Shown here piece by piece: positions 7,662 to 41,796 of a DNA stretch of 64,000 nt; the first letter of the stretch is position 1, and each line of letters opens with the position of its first letter. A program made the translations under genes and the position numbers. This DNA is from a virus (Duplodnaviria; Caudoviricetes). The stretch covers positions 1-64,000 of the IMG/VR virus record IMGVR_UViG_3300013947_000027. The stretch is one strand, 5' to 3'. Below the pieces are notes generated by a model. It was not told the origin of the DNA and did no database searches. It saw nothing but the letters and a program-made list of their open reading frames with translations.

Positions 7662-7754
7662 ATAAAAGAAGAAATGTTAGTCTTCTAGATATACATCTAG
7701 ATCTCCTTGCTAGTTTCCTAGGAACGGAATCGAACCGTTTCTTCATTTCTTCTC
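7662..7754 (-). ncRNA. Structured small RNA A (four-way junction with a tRNA T-arm)
   Basis: 10-bp closing stem AGAAGAAATG/CATTTCTTCT; AACGG-TTCGATT-CCGTT; CTAG-GAAA-CTAG; TCTAGAT-GTAT-ATCTAGA; U-tract; starts at motif 7775. Confidence 0.7.
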
Positions 7755-7838
7755 ATAATAGGCAATGTAATTTTCGCGAACCTAAAATATCAAAAAGAAA
7801 GAGGCTCTGAAAACAGAACCTCTAACTTCGTCGAGTTG

Positions 7839-30229: not shown

Positions 30230-30538
30230 TTAGCTGTGTAACATTGTTTCCCATCCTAAACAGTTAACTTCAACGATATGATTTTCCATGTAATCTGTCT
30301 CGAATAGCATCTTTTCAAAAGCTCGCCATTCGTCCATAACATAGATGAACTTCTTTTTGAAGTCCTTCAGAGCTTCTTCTTTTGTTTCGCCATAGCCAGT
30401 AATATCAAAGAAGTTATGACTCCACACGTCATGCTCCATATTATAAAATTCCGGCTCTGTGATACCTACTTCGTGAGATTTACTTTTCTCCTTTCCATCA
30501 TTGTGGTGAGTTAAACTGATCATAGCTGCTCCTTTCAA
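30230..30538 (-). CDS. Hypothetical protein
   Basis: GYGETKEEAL (HicB-like G.T.EEA motif). Confidence 0.5.
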   Translation of the reverse strand: MKGAAMISLTHHNDGKEKSKSHEVGITEPEFYNMEHDVWSHNFFDITGYGETKEEALKDFKKKFIYVMDEWRAFEKMLFETDYMENHIVEVNCLGWETMLHS

Positions 30539-31206
30539 AGTTTGTCGATGTGCATTGCAAGTTTACCTCTATAGCTGATTGGCAGCTCACATTTGATATA
30601 ACCTTCAAAGCCTTCCATGTGTTGGATGAGCTGATTGAAGCCAGATTTATGAATCGGTACATCCGTTTGTGCTTGGCACCCAATACAGATTACCTTGCAG
30701 TTGTCATAGCATCTGGAAAGAATTCGCTTGATGATAGGAATACTCATGTTCTGACATTCGTCAATGATAACAACTTGCCGCTCGAGATTGATGCCTCGCA
30801 TAAAGGTAGCAGAGTGTGCTTCAAGCCAAGCAGTTCCATTCTTATTTGAAATATCGGAAGAGATTGCTTGTGTTGGGATAATGTTGCACTTGACCAAAGC
30901 CTGGTAAAGAGGTCCAAGGTAGTCTGCCTCTTTGTCACTTGTGCTGCCAGGTCTGTAGCCCAGGGACGATTCTTCTATTACCGGAAAGATAAACGTAGCC
31001 GAGTCATATCTATGATCTCGATTGATCAGAAGATTTGCACAAGCAATAGACAGAAGCGTTTTACCAGAACCAGCAGTTGCATCTGCCAGAATGAAATTAT
31101 ACTCATCGCTCATGATCGCATCTACGAATTTCTGCTGATCCTCATTGAGTACAAATCCATAAAAAATATCATCCTTGTTCTTTCTGTTGCCAGCCTTTGC
31201 TGCCAT
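30535..31206 (-). CDS. phoH: PhoH-family ATPase
   Basis: AGSGKT, LGYRPG, FMRGIN, IIDECQN, Q.D. Confidence 0.9.
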   Translation of the reverse strand: MAAKAGNRKNKDDIFYGFVLNEDQQKFVDAIMSDEYNFILADATAGSGKTLLSIACANLLINRDHRYDSATFIFPVIEESSLGYRPGSTSDKEADYLGPLYQALVKCNIIPTQAISSDISNKNGTAWLEAHSATFMRGINLERQVVIIDECQNMSIPIIKRILSRCYDNCKVICIGCQAQTDVPIHKSGFNQLIQHMEGFEGYIKCELPISYRGKLAMHIDKL

Positions 31207-31445: not shown

Positions 31446-32672
31446 TTAGGTGATCCATTTATTCAGCCAGCGGCCTTCATTGAATATTTTCTTTTCTTTG
31501 AGAGCTCTGCTAATTGCAATGTCAATGCTGGCTCGTGATTTGAGGTGATAGTAGTAGAGGTCGATGAATTTGGTATTGAGCCTATCCACACGACCTGCCG
31601 CCTGAGTCATAACTTTATAGCTATAATTTTGACTATAAAATATAATTGTGTCTGTAGTTATGCAATTCCAGCCTTCGCAGCCTGAAGTATACTGAGTTAG
31701 ATAGACCCATTTGCTTCCTGTCGGAACAGGCTGATGAGCGTGACCAGACCATTCAGCAATTTTTGTGCCTTCTGCATAGCCAAGGTTTAGAAGAATTTCT
31801 CGTTCATAGTCGAAGTTATAAAATACAATTGCTTTCGGATGGTCTTCCATCAACTCAAGTAGAGCCACTTGCCTAGAATCATCTTCATTGACTATCCTAC
31901 GCAAAACATAGCATAGACTGGATGCTTGCTGAATAGGCTCATCTTTATATGGATTCCAGCGTTTCTTAAAAACATCTTTGTAGAATTGAACATCGTAATT
32001 GCAGTAAACATCTTCATGATGAGGTTTTGTATGACGCTGAACAGTCATGTCGATAAGAATTCTATTACGCAATCGATCAAGGCGCTGTGTCCCGATATAA
32101 CGTTCGATCTGAGGAAATTTTGCAAATCTAGAATATACAACGTGTTCTCTTTGGAATTCTGTTTTGTTTTTGTAGAAACCATTCGCTACAAATACAGCCC
32201 AATAATCCATATAGGTATCACCAGGAGTTGCTGAAAGGATAATCCAATCGTTATTCTTGGCTATTTTGAGAAACGCTTTTACCCAAGCTCCTGAACCTGT
32301 CACACGATCCTCATCTAGGAGAAAGAAAGCCCCTTTGATCTCAGCGTATTTCTTAATATTGTTCCAGCTATCGACAACGACTTTGTTTTTGTAGTAATTT
32401 GTCTCCGGATTAGTGGATAGTCGATAATGTGCTAATTCACCGTCCCATTCGAGAGAATCACGCTTTTTTGCTGTGGTAATGATATAAAGATCTTTTGGAT
32501 TCTTCATAGGAGTATAGTCAGAACCTTCTATCCATCCGCCATTCTCTTTAAAATAGTAGAAGAGTCCGGTACGAGATTTGCCAGATCCGACACTTCCATT
32601 TAATATTGAACCGTTTCTAGCTTTCTTGACCGCTTCCATTTGAAAATCATATAAAAAGGGTTTTGTGCTCAC
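31446..32672 (-). CDS. Superfamily 2 helicase
   Basis: GSGKS, LLDE, LSATPG, QAAGRVDR. Confidence 0.88.
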   Translation of the reverse strand: MSTKPFLYDFQMEAVKKARNGSILNGSVGSGKSRTGLFYYFKENGGWIEGSDYTPMKNPKDLYIITTAKKRDSLEWDGELAHYRLSTNPETNYYKNKVVVDSWNNIKKYAEIKGAFFLLDEDRVTGSGAWVKAFLKIAKNNDWIILSATPGDTYMDYWAVFVANGFYKNKTEFQREHVVYSRFAKFPQIERYIGTQRLDRLRNRILIDMTVQRHTKPHHEDVYCNYDVQFYKDVFKKRWNPYKDEPIQQASSLCYVLRRIVNEDDSRQVALLELMEDHPKAIVFYNFDYEREILLNLGYAEGTKIAEWSGHAHQPVPTGSKWVYLTQYTSGCEGWNCITTDTIIFYSQNYSYKVMTQAAGRVDRLNTKFIDLYYYHLKSRASIDIAISRALKEKKIFNEGRWLNKWIT

Positions 32673-33247
32673 TCATCTTTCACCGGCCATTCATATCCAA
32701 AATCAGTTCTTTTAATTTTACATACTGGTTCGCCATCAAGCCAGAAAACCAGACCCTCCGCTTTATGCTTATTAAGCCAATTAGATACAGATTCAAAAGT
32801 GCGACCTACATCGGCTGTCATTTTACCATGCTGTACAAGCATGTCAGTAAATAAACCATATGGATTGCCTTGGAAATGCGGACCAATCGCCTCATATGTT
32901 CCATCATGGAGACCATACCCAATGGGCATTTCGGTAGTACGCTTCGCTTGCACAAACCATTTATCTGCTGGGTTATTCTCATTAACTTCAACCCAATGCG
33001 GCCAATGACCTGTTACCGGATCTGGATCACAGCAAGGAATCGCTCCTTCAGGTGGTTTCTTTCCTTTCTTAGCATCGTATCTTTTATAGAACCTGCCGTC
33101 GATAATTGCGCAGCAAGCCCCGTCAATCTTTACGGTAGCATCACCTTTCAAAAAAGCTTCTTCGCAGCCTTCCGTGATCACAGGAACAATATCAATAATG
33201 CTATGGTCATAAAAGACACGTTTAAACAATGTAGGAATCTTTTTCAT
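32669..33247 (-). CDS. ATP-dependent RNA ligase-like nucleotidyltransferase (DUF5565-like)
   Basis: ATVKIDG (KxDG), TYEAIG, EGLVF, KIKR. Confidence 0.65.
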   Translation of the reverse strand: MKKIPTLFKRVFYDHSIIDIVPVITEGCEEAFLKGDATVKIDGACCAIIDGRFYKRYDAKKGKKPPEGAIPCCDPDPVTGHWPHWVEVNENNPADKWFVQAKRTTEMPIGYGLHDGTYEAIGPHFQGNPYGLFTDMLVQHGKMTADVGRTFESVSNWLNKHKAEGLVFWLDGEPVCKIKRTDFGYEWPVKDE

Positions 33248-35427: not shown

Positions 35428-35553
35428 TGGTGTCAGAGGCAGGACTCGAACCTGCAATATCTTCTATGGCGCCCTCTTCGTTTGAAGTTCGGACCGAAAC
35501 CACGTACGAAGCACCTATTGTCTTAGCGTCTCTACCAATTCGACTACTCTGAC
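35428..35553 (-). ncRNA. 126-nt tRNA-like RNA (Leu-like acceptor, D and T arms, CCA) with the anticodon/variable region replaced by about 70 nt
   Basis: GTCAGAG/CTCTGAC-ACCA; GTC-GAATTGGTAGA-GAC; GCAGG-TTCGAGT-CCTGC. Confidence 0.8.
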
Positions 35554-35572
35554 GGAAATATAAAAATAGATT

Positions 35573-35833
35573 TCAGAGAAGCTTTTGGATTTTGTCGAGA
35601 ATCATTTTTCTACAATTCTCATCCGACAGCTTATCTTCAATAAGTTCTACAATGTACTGTTCGACAATATGAGAATTAATATTAATATCCTTGATCGGAA
35701 CGACCTACATAAGCCTACAATCTTGATCGACGAATGTTCTCGTGAAAATAAAGTGAATAGAATCGTCGAACTTCCAATAACCGAAATGACACCGGATGTC
35801 ACGTTCTTTGCAGAGTTCAAAAATCTTTTCCAT
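35573..35833 (-). pseudogene. 86-codon ORF interrupted by an in-frame TAG at codon 43
   Basis: AAAGGAG RBS; MEKIFELC..CRLM*VVPIKD..KIQKLL; TAG at 35705-35707. Confidence 0.55.
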
Positions 35834-35935: not shown

Positions 35936-36012
35936 TGGTGCCGGATAAGGAATTCGAATCCTTACTGTACGGAGCTTAAATCCGTTGCCTCTTCCGATTG
36001 GGCTAATCCGGC
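35936..36012 (-). tRNA. tRNA-Leu(TAA) with a short variable region
   Basis: GCCGGAT/ATCCGGC-ACCA; anticodon arm ACGGA-TTTAAGC-TCCGT; T-arm AAGGA-TTCGAAT-TCCTT. Confidence 0.85.
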
Positions 36013-36058
36013 AAATATAAAAGCCGCTATTTATATACATAGGGCGGCTAGTCCTATA

Positions 36059-36134
36059 TGGCAGAGATGGCAGGATTTGAACCTACGAATACTAGAGTCA
36101 AAGTCTAGTGCCTTAACCACTTGGCAACATCTCT
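36059..36134 (-). tRNA. tRNA-Gln(TTG)
   Basis: AGAGATG/CATCTCT-GCCA; CTAGA-CTTTGAC-TCTAG. Confidence 0.9.
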
Positions 36135-36137
36135 ATC

Positions 36138-36214
36138 TGGTGGGCCCTCTGGTACTCGAAACCAGAACCGTCCGGTTATGAGCCGGGTGCTCTAACCAAT
36201 TGAGCTAAGGGCCC
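36138..36214 (-). tRNA. tRNA with CAT anticodon (Ile2-like; elongator Met not excluded)
   Basis: GGGCCCT/AGGGCCC-ACCA; CCGG-CTCATAA-CCGG; the 5' half resembles bacterial lysidine tRNA-Ile2. Confidence 0.85.
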
Positions 36215-36220
36215 AAATAT

Positions 36221-36305
36221 AAAAAGAAGAGTATGGGTTGCGGCCCAACGGTGCCGAACTCAACCGATTCGATTTTACTCGAATTCCGTATATCATACTC
36301 TTCTC
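36221..36305 (-). ncRNA. Structured small RNA D at the head of the tRNA cluster
   Basis: 11-bp closing stem AGAAGAGTATG/CATACTCTTCT; ATTCGA-GTAAAA-TCGAAT; CGGT-N10-ACCG; U-tract; motif 36326. Confidence 0.7.
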
Positions 36306-36331: not shown

Positions 36332-36374
36332 TGGTCCGAGTGACAGGTCTTGAACCAATCTGAGCTACACCCGG
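36332..36374 (-). pseudogene. Internally deleted tRNA (Pro-like), D-loop fused to T-loop
   Basis: CCGGGTG-TAGCTCAGATTGG|TTCAAGACCTGT-CACTCGG-ACCA (43 nt). Confidence 0.7.
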
Positions 36375-36421
36375 AAATATAAAGAGGACCCGAGCAATTA
36401 AGCCCGAGCCCTCTTACAGGT

Positions 36422-37201: not shown

Positions 37202-38497
37202 TTAGCGTTTTCTGAAGGCGTCGTCATGTTCCGACGTCGTTGCTTGAAGTTCTTCATCGGTATACCAAGGAGGATCTTCATCAGGGGGAAAGTCGATTCC
37301 TGCGACGGAGGTGTAAGGTTCGTCTGCTACAAAACGTTCGAAGTCGCCATATTGAGAAATGAAATCGACCGCCTTATCAACAAGAGCTCGATGATAGCTC
37401 TTATCAATATCGTCTTCCTTACCAAGTGTCTTTACTGCTTCAGCTTCAAGCCAGCGATATGGAGTCTTATCAGCTCTAAGAGTACCAGTGACAGAATCAT
37501 ACTTGAGACTTCCATCTTTAGCTTTGCTTTCTCGAACAAGTACCCCACCGCCACAGCCAGGTTTGATTGGGCAGAAGTTACCTACTTTTCCAACAAAGTG
37601 ATAATCATGTTCGCCTTCAGGAAGGTCTTCATTCATGTCAACATAGATAGACGTCTTAACTTCCTTAGCTTCACAGAGATCCTCAAACTCGATTGGTTCT
37701 TTGCTGAACAAAGTCTTGAAGACATATGGAATTTGGAACTGCTTACCAGTCGCAGTCCACATCATGCCTTTCTTTTCAGCCTTGGCATTATCGCTAGGAA
37801 CATATCCATACACGGATTCGCACCATTTTGAGTCTGCGTATTTCGCAATGTAGTCAGCGTCGTTGATCTGACAAATTCGCTCATAGGTGCATTCGTGATC
37901 AAATTTATAAGAATACTTCTCAGCGAATTTCATGCAGAAATCAACGATCTCCTTGTCTGCATTAGCAATTTTGATTGAATCCGTCTTGATCGCTACAATC
38001 TGATAGCCACGACTTTCAACCTCGTCCTGAAGAGTTCGCATAAAGAGAGCCCCCCTCAGGGCTACAATATTATTCTTATTACGAATATCCCTGAACGGAT
38101 TATCAAAGCTTGCAGCAGTAAGACCATAGACGCTGTTGATAGCTATTTTGAGGGCTTGAGCAAGATCCTTCGCAGTAGACTCATCTTCTAGATATGGAGC
38201 AAGTCTACCATTAAGCATCGTACGAGCAGTATCGTAATCACCATGTTTGATTGCTACACGAGCGTCCAGAATATCAGTGAAATTTTTCGTATAGTCGCCA
38301 AAGCAATTCATAGCTCTAATAGAGTTTGGATGAAGTGAGTTTACATCCAACATGGCAACCTTCGTGTAAATACCAGGGAAGGATATAATATAGCCTCCGA
38401 ATCCCATATCTGTTCCGCGATACATATTATGTGACTTTCCATCTTCACCGAATTGCACAAATTCATATCCTGGGAATGCATTAATTACGTCAGCCAT
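37202..38497 (-). CDS. Family B-type DNA polymerase catalytic domain (second piece of the replicase)
   Basis: LDVNSLHP, KIAINSVYG, IKTDS; own RBS (GCGGTGA) and ATG at 38497. Confidence 0.85.
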   Translation of the reverse strand: MADVINAFPGYEFVQFGEDGKSHNMYRGTDMGFGGYIISFPGIYTKVAMLDVNSLHPNSIRAMNCFGDYTKNFTDILDARVAIKHGDYDTARTMLNGRLAPYLEDESTAKDLAQALKIAINSVYGLTAASFDNPFRDIRNKNNIVALRGALFMRTLQDEVESRGYQIVAIKTDSIKIANADKEIVDFCMKFAEKYSYKFDHECTYERICQINDADYIAKYADSKWCESVYGYVPSDNAKAEKKGMMWTATGKQFQIPYVFKTLFSKEPIEFEDLCEAKEVKTSIYVDMNEDLPEGEHDYHFVGKVGNFCPIKPGCGGGVLVRESKAKDGSLKYDSVTGTLRADKTPYRWLEAEAVKTLGKEDDIDKSYHRALVDKAVDFISQYGDFERFVADEPYTSVAGIDFPPDEDPPWYTDEELQATTSEHDDAFRKR

Positions 38498-39008
38498 TAG
38501 CATCACCGCTTTCTACGTATTTGAAATGATAGCCATGATGAGTATGTCTTCTACCGTGCAAGCACTCATGTATATGACCAGGATTTCCATGTATCTTCCT
38601 AGCACAGTCACCGATGCCATCAAATACTTCACCAGTTTCTACTATCATAATCGGCCGCATAGTTTTTTGAATATAATTTGGTGATCTTAGACCCATTTTA
38701 TAGGCGTGCTCCTGATTTTCACTAGAAGTAACCCATTCCAAGTTATCAGCTCGATTGTTCAACTTATTACCATCAATATGATTTACGTATCGTTTATTAA
38801 ATGGATCGGGATTTTCTACAAAAGTTTCTGCGACTAAGCTATGAACACACTGCGAGACATCTTTTTCGGTGCAACCGATCCGCATATATCCTCTCGCATT
38901 CATATATTGATTTAATTCATGCCATTTTCCTCTTTTGCGTCTAAGAATATTTCCTTCATCTGAAATCAAAAAATTATCATGATTTGGATGCTGTTTCCAT
39001 CTACTCAT
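38490..39008 (-). mobile_element. Intact NUMOD4-HNH-NUMOD1 homing endonuclease between the two replicase pieces
   Basis: VHSLVAETF..VNHIDGNKLNNRADNLEW; AAGGAGG RBS. Confidence 0.9.
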
Positions 39009-39027
39009 TTTTAGTCCTCCTTTCTTA

Positions 39028-41796
39028 TTAGTATTGTTCACCTGTAGCAAGATCAGTGTAAACAAGCTTTGGTTTGCGTTCTTTACCAAACACAATTTTA
39101 GTAGTGAGGTTATTTGTAGTATCGTTGACTGTGCCTCCAGCTAAATCTGCAAGAATCTGACGAGCAGTAAAGTCGCCCTTGAGATGATTAAAGACTTTTT
39201 CCGTGGAAATTACATCCCAGTCACAATAAGCAGCTACTTCTTCCCATTTTTCTTCAGGAACGGGTTTGTCCCATGGGAGCCCGAGTTCCTTATGTCCAAT
39301 GTTGAGTTCGATTTCCCATTTTTTAAGAGACATTTTCTTAGCAGCGAAATCGTAAATATCAGTGTAAGAAAGATTATATGCTTCACTGAAGAATGCTTTG
39401 TTGCGATCGCCTTTCTCCGCATTGATGATACTTTGAGACAAATTATATAGCTGTCCGTTGTCATAACCAAGTAGACACGCATACAACATATGATTGTCGT
39501 ATCTTCTGCAATTGTATCCGACTAGCTTAAACTTAAGAAGCTCTTCAATATCCTTAGGTTTCGGATTGATCATTCGAACAACAGGCTTCCCTTCGCCAGC
39601 GACTTTCCAGTTAACCAAGAATAGATTAGAAAATACTTCGCAGTCGAAGAAGACCAACTCATCCTTCTCAGCATCAACTGCCGCCGAAGGTTCTTCTGAC
39701 TTGAACTTCATCTTATTAGCAAGCTTAATGCAGTAATCCGCCTGATTTGTGCTTCCAGCAGCAAAGGCAAAGATCTCATTCTTAAGATCGCTGACATCAT
39801 AGCCAATACCGCTGCTATACGCATCATCAAGTAGTTTCGCAATATAATCTACACTGGGCTTTGTTGCAGCATGATACTCTTTGTTAAGATTTCTCTTAAT
39901 CATTGTGCGCAACATTTTTTCATTTTTAATACCATCCCAATTAATCAAACTCTTATCATCTCCTTTCAACGGCAATCCAGAGCTGATCGTCGCAATAGGA
40001 AGATTGTTACACTTGGTCAACATTCTTCTAAGCGAGCTCTTGCCGGTGAATACTTTGATCTCAATGTCATCATCATAAATGCGACTTAACTTAGTAGGAT
40101 CTCCACTATAAATATAATGGAGATGAATGCCTGCTCCACTCTTGCTCAATTCCGCATATGTAGGAGGCCACTTCTCAGCCGCTTCGAGATTCTTCTGAAA
40201 AGATTTATTGCCAGTTTCATCCCGAATATCAAAGTCAATGACAATATGATTCTCAGGGACCTTAACATAATGCAGTTTCGAAGTGTCCAGTTTAGCAAGA
40301 GTAGACTTTACGTCATCCCATTTCCGAGATGGAGTTTCCTTGGAAGAAGCTTTCTGAGCAAGACAATCAGCGCATTCCTTGTCAAATACGGAAGGCTGAA
40401 CTTCCATTTTGAGCCACTCAGGAATAGGCTTCTCGTCCGTAGCCTCTTTAGTCTCTCCTTCGGATTCCGCAAATTCTTCCGATTTACTCTCACCAGTCTC
40501 AAACTTCTCAGTTCTGAAACCACTGTAATAGCTACGAGCACGCTCACCACTATCGCTAGTAAACCGTTCGTTGAACTCTCGGAAATAGTTCATCAACTCA
40601 GATCTGAAGTGCATCTTCGAGAGCGAATAAGGAACCTTCGCCTCGTCAACGTAGGTCTTATACATCTCCCAAGCAGCCTTCAGTGTCGTTCCGTCATCTC
40701 TCTTGAAAATATGATACGAATCTATCATGAAGTTATAGAAATCGTTGGATGCGCTCATCATCGATGTAGGAATATATTCATCGTACCGGCCGGGATCAGA
40801 CAAATATACTTCCTTACAATGCCAAGCAATCGGACCCAACTCAAACTGAACATGCTTCATGAGCTTGTTATACTCTCGAATAGGAATCTTATTACCAGAC
40901 GGAGTAACATCAATCAGTCGTCTCAAAATACCAGACTTACCATCTGTAATCTTGACAGGCTTATTCGTACCCATAAACAAGAAACAAACGAAACGATTCT
41001 CATACTGAGATTTATGCTTTTCGTTCACGCTCATCCATTCGTGAGAAACCACACTGTTAAGACGAGTATTATCCTCAATCTTAGACAGATCGCCATCATG
41101 CTGAATAGCAACCAGTGGGTTCTTTTTAAATGGTTCAAGCGCAAATTGAGCACTGGCGGAACCAAGAGCCTTAGCATCGAATACTGCATGGTAACCGTCA
41201 AACAGATCCTGAATAATATTCAGAATTGTCGACTTACCTGTACCAGGGCCACCATAGAGAACCAAGAACTTCTGCAGAGTCTTGGAATCTCCAGTAACAA
41301 TGGCGCCGATAGCCCATTCGATCTTATGCCGCTCTTCTTCGGTGTAAAGTGTAGAGATAATTTTCTCATAAGCAGGACAATCGCCAGGCTCAAGAGGGTA
41401 GCTAAGCCTCTTGCTGGAATAATCCTTCTTATTCGTGCCGTCATTAGCAAACAGGAGCTTCTCGTCCAACATATGATAAGAATCTCGAAGCTGCTTCTGA
41501 CAATACTTATGCCAGCCATCAATCACTCCGGTTTCGGCATCTCGCATATAGCAAATCCGTACACTTCCGTCGATTTCGCCCTTATGCTCATCGGCGTACT
41601 TAGTAAGCTCACGGTCTACCAGCTGCACAACGTCCTGCTCGTCCGTAGACCACAAGCCTCGATCTTCGACCCACACAGCATAGAAGTCTCCGCCTCTGAT
41701 CATGAGATCATCCACATGCTTAATTAAGAATTTGGGATAAATTTCTGTATACCCAGGCTTTTTAATGCGAGTCGATACTGTGAAAAAATCGAGCAT
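39028..41796 (-). CDS. SF3 helicase - primase (AEP/prim-pol) - 3'-5' exonuclease fusion
   Basis: GGPGTGKST; VIDFD..SKSGAGIHLHY; FFDCE, GYN..YD, YCDWD. Confidence 0.88.
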   Translation of the reverse strand: MLDFFTVSTRIKKPGYTEIYPKFLIKHVDDLMIRGGDFYAVWVEDRGLWSTDEQDVVQLVDRELTKYADEHKGEIDGSVRICYMRDAETGVIDGWHKYCQKQLRDSYHMLDEKLLFANDGTNKKDYSSKRLSYPLEPGDCPAYEKIISTLYTEEERHKIEWAIGAIVTGDSKTLQKFLVLYGGPGTGKSTILNIIQDLFDGYHAVFDAKALGSASAQFALEPFKKNPLVAIQHDGDLSKIEDNTRLNSVVSHEWMSVNEKHKSQYENRFVCFLFMGTNKPVKITDGKSGILRRLIDVTPSGNKIPIREYNKLMKHVQFELGPIAWHCKEVYLSDPGRYDEYIPTSMMSASNDFYNFMIDSYHIFKRDDGTTLKAAWEMYKTYVDEAKVPYSLSKMHFRSELMNYFREFNERFTSDSGERARSYYSGFRTEKFETGESKSEEFAESEGETKEATDEKPIPEWLKMEVQPSVFDKECADCLAQKASSKETPSRKWDDVKSTLAKLDTSKLHYVKVPENHIVIDFDIRDETGNKSFQKNLEAAEKWPPTYAELSKSGAGIHLHYIYSGDPTKLSRIYDDDIEIKVFTGKSSLRRMLTKCNNLPIATISSGLPLKGDDKSLINWDGIKNEKMLRTMIKRNLNKEYHAATKPSVDYIAKLLDDAYSSGIGYDVSDLKNEIFAFAAGSTNQADYCIKLANKMKFKSEEPSAAVDAEKDELVFFDCEVFSNLFLVNWKVAGEGKPVVRMINPKPKDIEELLKFKLVGYNCRRYDNHMLYACLLGYDNGQLYNLSQSIINAEKGDRNKAFFSEAYNLSYTDIYDFAAKKMSLKKWEIELNIGHKELGLPWDKPVPEEKWEEVAAYCDWDVISTEKVFNHLKGDFTARQILADLAGGTVNDTTNNLTTKIVFGKERKPKLVYTDLATGEQY

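Follow-up and report, generated by a model that had tools for sequence, protein, structure and literature searches.

Does a phage gene that keeps both ends of a tRNA, with an oversized insert in place of the anticodon domain, encode a decoding tRNA, the relic of one or a functional RNA of another kind? The question is raised by a 126-nt tRNA-like gene on the minus strand (35428-35553) within the tRNA cluster of a virus from IMG/VR. The source record is 102,032 bp long and rated complete; the window, that is, the whole stretch of DNA analyzed, is its first 64 kb. tRNA-like stable RNAs of phage tRNA clusters have been known since the T4/T5 era, and species 1 and 2 of T4 (rnaC, rnaD) are stable RNAs encoded in such a cluster. 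To our knowledge, no function has ever been assigned to RNAs of this kind.

A tRNA-Leu frame surrounds a 72-nt cargo

An earlier note on this DNA had described an acceptor stem of 7 bp, a D loop of the Leu type, a perfect T arm and an A discriminator followed by CCA, with about 71 nt between the D and T arms. We found every part of this frame on the minus strand and measured the intervening segment, termed here the cargo, at 72 nt (RNA 27-98). The features are:

35428..35553, minus strand: whole tRNA-framed RNA gene, 126 nt, encoded CCA included (Rfam RF00005, 41.8 bits; copies 94-96% identical in contigs L008, L009 and L003)
35547..35553, minus strand: 5' strand of the acceptor stem, GUCAGAG, RNA 1-7 (pairs 7/7 with 35432-35438; invariant in four variants)
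35528..35544, minus strand: D arm GUC-GAAUUGGUAGA-GAC, RNA 10-26, Leu class II type (D loop as in T5 RNA1 and at least 84 family members)
35456..35527, minus strand: 72-nt cargo in place of the anticodon and variable arms, RNA 27-98 (10 of the 12 variable columns; no Rfam family)
35439..35455, minus strand: T arm GCAGG-UUCGAGU-CCUGC, RNA 99-115 (one C-C mismatch in L009)
35432..35438, minus strand: 3' strand of the acceptor stem, CUCUGAC, RNA 116-122 (four-variant alignment)
35428..35431, minus strand: discriminator A73 and encoded CCA (sequence reading)
35554..35565, minus strand: leader TTTTATATTTCC, abutting the 5' end of the element (the same motif stands directly before tRNA-Met, the tRNA(UAA) and a tRNA-Pro remnant)
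35554-35565, 36012-36022, 36214-36224 and 36374-36384, minus strand: copies of the TTTTATATTT leader (motif search)

After the 5' strand of the acceptor stem come U8 and then A9, and the D arm combines a 3-bp stem with an 11-nt loop, the pattern of class II Leu tRNAs in related phages. The Rfam tRNA model (gathering threshold 29 bits) covers the full length of the element with a score of 41.8 bits and, over the window, an E-value of 1.9e-5; model positions 1-71 are all matched, and a 62-nt insertion relative to the model falls at the anticodon-arm site. Because the score exceeds the threshold at this E-value and the sequence is 94-96% conserved in three related contigs, the element is more than a chance resemblance.

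Run with default settings, ARAGORN reports only three tRNAs in the cluster, namely UAA (35936-36012), Gln (36059-36134) and Met (36138-36214), and makes no call at the element. Elsewhere in the genome there is a single further tRNA gene, for Thr, and all regular tRNAs of the cluster encode CCA. The element itself is placed 19 nt past the stop codon of one ORF and 15 nt ahead of the ribosome-binding site of the next. Each independently placed tRNA or tRNA-like gene of the cluster has the TTTTATATTT motif, with or without CC, immediately before its 5' end; in the window the motif is found in 28 copies on the minus strand and 1 on the plus strand, often just ahead of ribosome-binding sites. The UAA tRNA (minus strand) measures 77 nt and, with its short variable loop, is of class I shape. 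The Leu(UAA) tRNAs of the related contigs L004, L005 and L008 are class II molecules of 85-89 nt with a related acceptor stem, and this phage and L003 seem to possess a tRNA with a Leu anticodon from which the long variable arm has been lost.

No second copy of the element was found in the 102-kb genome or in any locus, and an origin as a mobile-element insert was dropped on that ground. When GenBank phages were searched by blastn with the 1-kb region, the three ordinary tRNAs were matched, the element never. Contigs from candidate RNA runs cover only the tRNAs of other organisms; the one apparent joint among them, between 35455 and 36171, arises from foreign tRNAs that cross-match.

The replicase of this phage is closest to that of Faecalibacterium phage FP_oengus (61% identity), with more distant relatives in Enterococcus, Arthrobacter and Gordonia phages, and the host is probably a gut clostridial bacterium. 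The same relationships ruled out a crAss-like origin. The replicase profile (phrog_4210) is split on the minus strand of 37202-41796: 39028-41796 holds profile positions 1-923 and 37202-38506 positions 919-1293, the two parts being separated by an HNH endonuclease gene (38490-39095).

The cargo holds no conserved anticodon arm

The features of a canonical decoding tRNA, a 5-bp anticodon stem closing a loop of 7 nt (U33, purine at 37) and a length of 70-95 nt, are absent from the element. The earlier note had likewise seen no canonical 7-nt anticodon loop, and both the 62-nt model insertion and an enumeration of excisions bear this out. All single excisions between the D and T arms were scored in four variants of the element; none yields a conserved canonical anticodon arm, and the best solutions are neither canonical nor conserved.

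We asked whether the element could nevertheless be the precursor of a decoding tRNA, for example one with the opal-reading anticodon UCA, from which one or more intervening sequences are removed by phage or host activity. ARAGORN, which the earlier note had proposed as a check, does offer with introns allowed a tRNA(UCA) for this copy, with a 34-nt intron at 31/32 and two stem mismatches. Its second model conflicts with the first: a tRNA(AAU) whose intron, of 46 nt, lies at 37/38, and which has C33 and a single mismatch. The anticodon stem is mismatched in both models, however, and the other three variants receive no call (1/4 called). This copy also carries the heptamer CUUCAAA next to a CGAAG that matches a CUUCG upstream, but these segments stand at a distance and a perfect CUUCG/CGAAG arm would require at least two excisions. 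Furthermore, the heptamer is confined to this copy: the other three read CUUCAUA, with A37 changed to U and weaker stems.

Precedent for splicing comes from Lak megaphages, whose oversized tRNA genes are read as bearing 'enigmatic introns' (Devoto et al. 2019, PMC6784885); there, a gene run through prediction in eukaryote mode comes out as a typed tRNA with an anticodon, and alleles that lack the intron are known (their Fig. 4). Like the element, the Lak genes are oversized, belong to gut phages, are left untyped by bacterial tRNA finders and have highly conserved inserts. In contrast to them, the element gives two conflicting models with one variant of four called and has no conserved anticodon arm. 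Searched with exact and with gapped patterns, the viral, metagenome and genome collections yielded no intron-less allele, only the same three relatives and chance coding matches. Matches to the D-arm pattern in Acidimicrobiales and metagenome contigs (L060, L061, L070) proved to be coding sequence rather than tRNA.

Two features of the neighborhood also speak for splicing, suppressor tRNAs (CUA, UUA) in the same cluster of related phages and an RNA-ligase-like gene 2.2 kb away. The former are near-identical tRNAs that differ at the anticodon only, CUA (amber) in L005 (6222-6292) and L039 (7428-7498) and UUA (ochre) in L006 (7343-7413), and represent one suppressor switched by a point change. 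The latter is a 192-aa ORF downstream of the cluster (32669-33247, minus strand; phrog_14301, E 5e-46; Pfam RLIG1, 26 bits). L004 has this gene as well but is devoid of the element, and this counts against splicing.

Known routes of intron removal fit the insert poorly. A group I intron measures about 200 nt or more, possesses a P1-P9 core and is inserted in the anticodon loop. The insert here is 62-72 nt, too short for such an intron as the earlier note had judged, and the cargo matched neither Intron_gpI nor any other Rfam family at E up to 1. In the bulge-helix-bulge motif of archaeal or eukaryal-type introns, exon and intron meet at two bulges of 3 nt each, which are separated by 4 bp and lie on opposite strands. 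The bulges of the element (RNA 56-59 and 64-66) share one strand in the minimum-energy as well as the consensus folds, and thus this geometry is absent.

An opal-suppressor function, the literal meaning of the ARAGORN output tRNA-SeC(tca), was rejected: the stem is mismatched, three relatives are uncalled and the standard code leaves the late genes open, with stop-to-stop ORFs covering 88-100% of the late region. One small ORF near the element (35833..35573) holds an in-frame TAG (35705-35707, minus strand) at a position that is Gln in both L003 and L004, and the half of the ORF downstream of the TAG is still conserved in frame. This TAG could be a nonsense mutation, a read-through site or incipient recoding; being a single case, it was not counted as evidence of genome-wide TAG recoding.

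Since no excision restores a conserved arm, the relatives are uncalled, no Rfam family matches, the bulge-helix-bulge geometry is missing and a group I intron would need a longer insert, a decoding product is unlikely, and we hold a spliced tRNA to be distinctly improbable. Of the two readings put forward in the earlier note, the unusually processed tRNA is accordingly disfavored, whereas the non-decoding tRNA mimic is supported by the missing anticodon arm, the single ARAGORN call among four variants and the class of Leu-framed RNAs described below.

We also weighed whether the element is a small counterpart of tmRNA or carries a ribozyme, its insert containing a tag reading frame or a motif for self-cleavage. 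Like the tRNA-like domain of tmRNA, the element joins the top half of a tRNA to other RNA in place of the anticodon arm. The parallel may extend to the synthetase, as tmRNA is charged by AlaRS, which ignores the anticodon, and the element would possibly be charged by LeuRS. In this copy a frame from RNA 40 ends at UAG (88-90). This stop codon is CAG in L009 and L003, however, and its loss effectively refutes the tmRNA-like reading. Moreover, tmRNA is ~360 nt long and contains a tag ORF, pseudoknots and a G3-U70 pair, none of which is present in the 126-nt element; the tmRNA mode of ARAGORN was negative, as were ribozyme and other Rfam families at E up to 1. We put the chance of such an RNA at next to nothing.

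The element is conserved and under selection

Viral and metagenome collections and 54 syntenic loci were scanned for the element. Only three further variants were found, L008 (= L057, L063), L009 (= L058) and L003 (= L002, L062), which are 94-96% identical to it, with no indels among the four. The earlier note had envisaged that relatives might carry a normal tRNA here and that the insert might be unique to this phage; all three relatives keep the insert. Twelve columns vary over the four variants, 10 of them in the 72-nt cargo and 2 in the 54-nt frame. Between the element and L008, 5 of 126 positions differ, as against 76 of 580 in the adjacent co-linear ORF block (Fisher p 0.0013). Together, the low divergence relative to the flank and the concentration of variable columns in the cargo (10/72 vs 2/54 in the frame) show that the element is real and under selection. 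Taken alone, the cargo diverges less from L008 (5/72) than the coding flank does, a difference that falls short of significance (p 0.09).

In L004, a close relative, the element and the following ORFs are absent, and the element is therefore dispensable. In L006, a normal tRNA-Leu(UAA) fills the slot just upstream of a conserved 125-aa ORF. In L039, another oversized tRNA-like gene, unrelated to the element and 113 nt long (7710-7822; Rfam tRNA, 41.1 bits), sits between tRNA-Leu(UAA) and the homologue of this ORF; its class II D loop is Ser-like, position 73 is G and CCA is missing. The otherwise collinear L005 does not have this gene. L008 and L009 have ~340 nt without a listed gene between tRNA-Leu(UAA) and the element (L008, 7635-7978), where the window has a small ORF. 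Upstream in L008 (7340-7374) there is a weak match to abiF RNA (28 bits, under the gathering threshold).

Could the element be a tRNA-Leu in decay, its anticodon domain destroyed by an insertion or rearrangement, which is now neutral or is kept only as an RNase P signal between ORFs (tRNA punctuation), with a functionless cargo? The cluster is certainly in flux. The minus strand of 36332-36374 holds what an internal deletion has left of a tRNA-Pro: after the acceptor stem and the 5' portion of the D arm, the sequence runs on, at a GG/TT junction, into the T loop, T stem, acceptor and ACCA. L004 keeps the corresponding intact 77-nt tRNA-Pro(UGG), and the comparison indicates that tRNA genes of this cluster decay by illegitimate deletion. 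The absence of the element from L004, the T-stem mismatch in L009, the clustering of substitutions in the cargo and the position between one ORF and the ribosome-binding site of the next are all compatible with decay. On the other side stand the lower divergence of the cargo than of neighboring coding sequence, the lack of indels among four variants and the nature of the changes at paired sites, all of which keep one fold (see below). In addition, at least 84 other phage lineages keep the frame and intact tertiary-core nucleotides around equally large cargos, which is hard to square with repeated neutral decay. We consider a relic unlikely, and favor a functional, non-decoding RNA.

Substitutions in the cargo are compatible with a two-hairpin fold

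The consensus fold of the cargo obtained with RNAalifold consists of two hairpins:

35504..35514, minus strand: hairpin A, RNA 40-43 with 47-50, 3-nt loop (RNAalifold consensus; pair 42-48 changes from G-U to A-U)
35466..35503, minus strand: long hairpin B-C-D, RNA 51-55/84-88, 60-63/80-83 and 67-70/75-78, tetraloop 71-74 (paired in all four variants)

This fold stays 100% paired in the four variants. Every substitution at a paired cargo site preserves pairing: pair 60-83 shows a compensatory change from G-C to A-U, and pairs 42-48, 51-88 and 61-82 alternate between G-U and Watson-Crick. Elsewhere the changes are confined to unpaired sites, with 65, 72 and 74 lying in a bulge or loop. The consensus is the minimum-energy fold of three of the four variants; for L008 and L003 it is obtained unconstrained, and for L009 it lies below the minimum reported by ViennaRNA. 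This copy has two iso-energetic folds (-36.1 vs -36.0 kcal/mol). The long irregular stem that the earlier note had drawn (GGUGC/GCGCC and CUUCGU/ACGAAG in the RNA) is one of them: the complementary segments are indeed there, but substitutions in the relatives break this fold, leaving 6 unpaired cells.

The homologue covariation that the earlier note had proposed to examine thus yielded an alternative fold kept in four variants with one compensatory change, but with a covariation score equalled by 114 of 500 shuffles. Covariation is statistically weak here because there are only four sequence variants, and the consensus is partly self-selected, as RNAalifold picks the structure that best fits the data. 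The fold energy of the whole RNA is no better than that of shuffles (z -0.95). The consensus further contains an alternative D hairpin (16-20/27-31) in which G18 and G19 pair with cargo positions 28-29 and would therefore compete with the tRNA elbow. The two-hairpin fold of the cargo is thus supported but not proven.

The element belongs to a class typified by T5 RNA1

Phage T5 (NC_005859) carries rna1 (30501-30644) and rna2 (32959-33083) in its tRNA cluster, both annotated as 'tRNA-like stable RNA with unknown functions'. Like the element (126 nt), these RNAs of 125-144 nt belong to a phage tRNA cluster and have an acceptor stem and a T arm. Direct reading of T5 RNA1 showed that its D arm is of the Leu type (loop GGAAUUGGUAGA), that it has a T arm and that its middle measures ~85 nt; here too an oversized, hairpin-rich segment replaces the anticodon and variable arms. 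The one stretch outside the tRNA frame that RNA1 has in common with the element is AAUAGGU, which in both follows GGUAGA by exactly 11 nt. Of 33 database matches to the GGUAGA/AAUAGGU pattern, only those in T5-like phages and in the present clade are tRNA-framed.

The T5 RNAs also differ from the element in several respects. Their cargos cannot be aligned with it. T5 RNA1 is missed by the Rfam tRNA model at E 0.01, whereas the element scores 41.8 bits, and it has no encoded ACCA end. The host of T5 is proteobacterial, that of the element likely a clostridial gut bacterium. Finally, stable accumulation is documented in the T5 annotation and is a putative property of the element.

When IMG/VR was scanned for the Leu D loop with a T loop 62-92 nt further on, at least 113 loci were obtained; the pattern demanded a Leu D loop, and the boundaries of the class are not set by it. 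Among the matches listed, 92 of 114 close into an acceptor and T frame, giving at least 84 distinct sequences of 107-137 nt besides the element. These share with it the D loop, U8 (82/84), U48 before the T stem (78/84; background T 27%), mostly A73 (66/84) and the T loop UUCGA(A/G)U. Unlike the element, most have a GCG/CGC D stem, acceptors of the AGUCAGG type and an ACAA or ACUA end in place of ACCA. Default ARAGORN calls none of the at least 84 sequences listed. With introns allowed, it forces 'anticodons' of more than 20 isotypes upon the matches listed, Leu in only 6 of 71. The cargos of the at least 84 sequences listed fall into 70 unrelated clusters, and that of the element resembles none of them above a shuffled null. 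As far as these sequences go, the frame is conserved across the class and the cargo is lineage-specific. Together our data show that the element is a member of a widespread phage RNA class typified by T5 RNA1, and that its kind was already known.

The frame retains sequence determinants of leucyl-tRNA synthetase

Work in E. coli has identified A15-U48 as one determinant of recognition by LeuRS. For bacterial LeuRS, A73 and the core pairs U8-A14, G18-U55 and G19-C56 are also critical, the anticodon arm is dispensable for aminoacylation and it matters how the variable arm is oriented (PMC2377443). The earlier note had argued that LeuRS relies on A73 and tertiary structure rather than on the anticodon, in line with these findings. 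The entire set of nucleotides is found in the element: A73, U8-A14, G18G19 with U55C56, and A15-U48. As all sequence elements critical for the bacterial enzyme are present, leucylation of the RNA is plausible.

Of the roles suggested by the earlier note, that of an EF-Tu or RelA modulator is speculative and that of a T-box modulator is disfavored. Stem I of a T-box requires an anticodon, and the element has none.

We think it probable that the element encodes a functional RNA that does not decode, which is based on a class II tRNA-Leu frame with its core nucleotides, A73 and CCA kept, and carries a lineage-specific 72-nt two-hairpin cargo at the site of the anticodon and variable arms. In this model, the element would be co-transcribed with the phage tRNA cluster, RNase P, whose requirements the frame retains, would cut its 5' end and the 3' end would finish at the encoded CCA. 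The tRNA frame may thereby supply processing, stability and an L-shaped handle. Bearing known LeuRS determinants, the RNA could be leucylated, and the cargo may act as a specificity module that binds a partner.

A broader proposal is that Leu-tRNA frames are widely used by phages as chargeable anticodon-less adaptors, loaded by host LeuRS and with the cargo steering the RNA or its leucine to a target of the phage's choosing, or else that frame and cargo form a decoy trapping a host defense enzyme directed at tRNA. We advance this tentatively and give it a small chance. If it were true, the conserved two-hairpin cargo would be one such specificity module.

Default tRNA finders miss genes of this type. 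With introns allowed they mis-type them, here as 'tRNA-SeC(tca)', which could wrongly imply stop-codon recoding. The present copy extends the T5 RNA1 kind to gut phages related to a Faecalibacterium phage, and adds a small, cleanly aligned set of variants with a structure-compatible change. In its tRNA-Leu frame, precisely those nucleotides are retained on which LeuRS and the tRNA fold depend, and its cargo appears to evolve under structural constraint. Together with the at least 84 other Leu-framed, cargo-bearing sequences, this copy suggests a general phage strategy in which a constant tRNA handle is combined with a variable RNA module.
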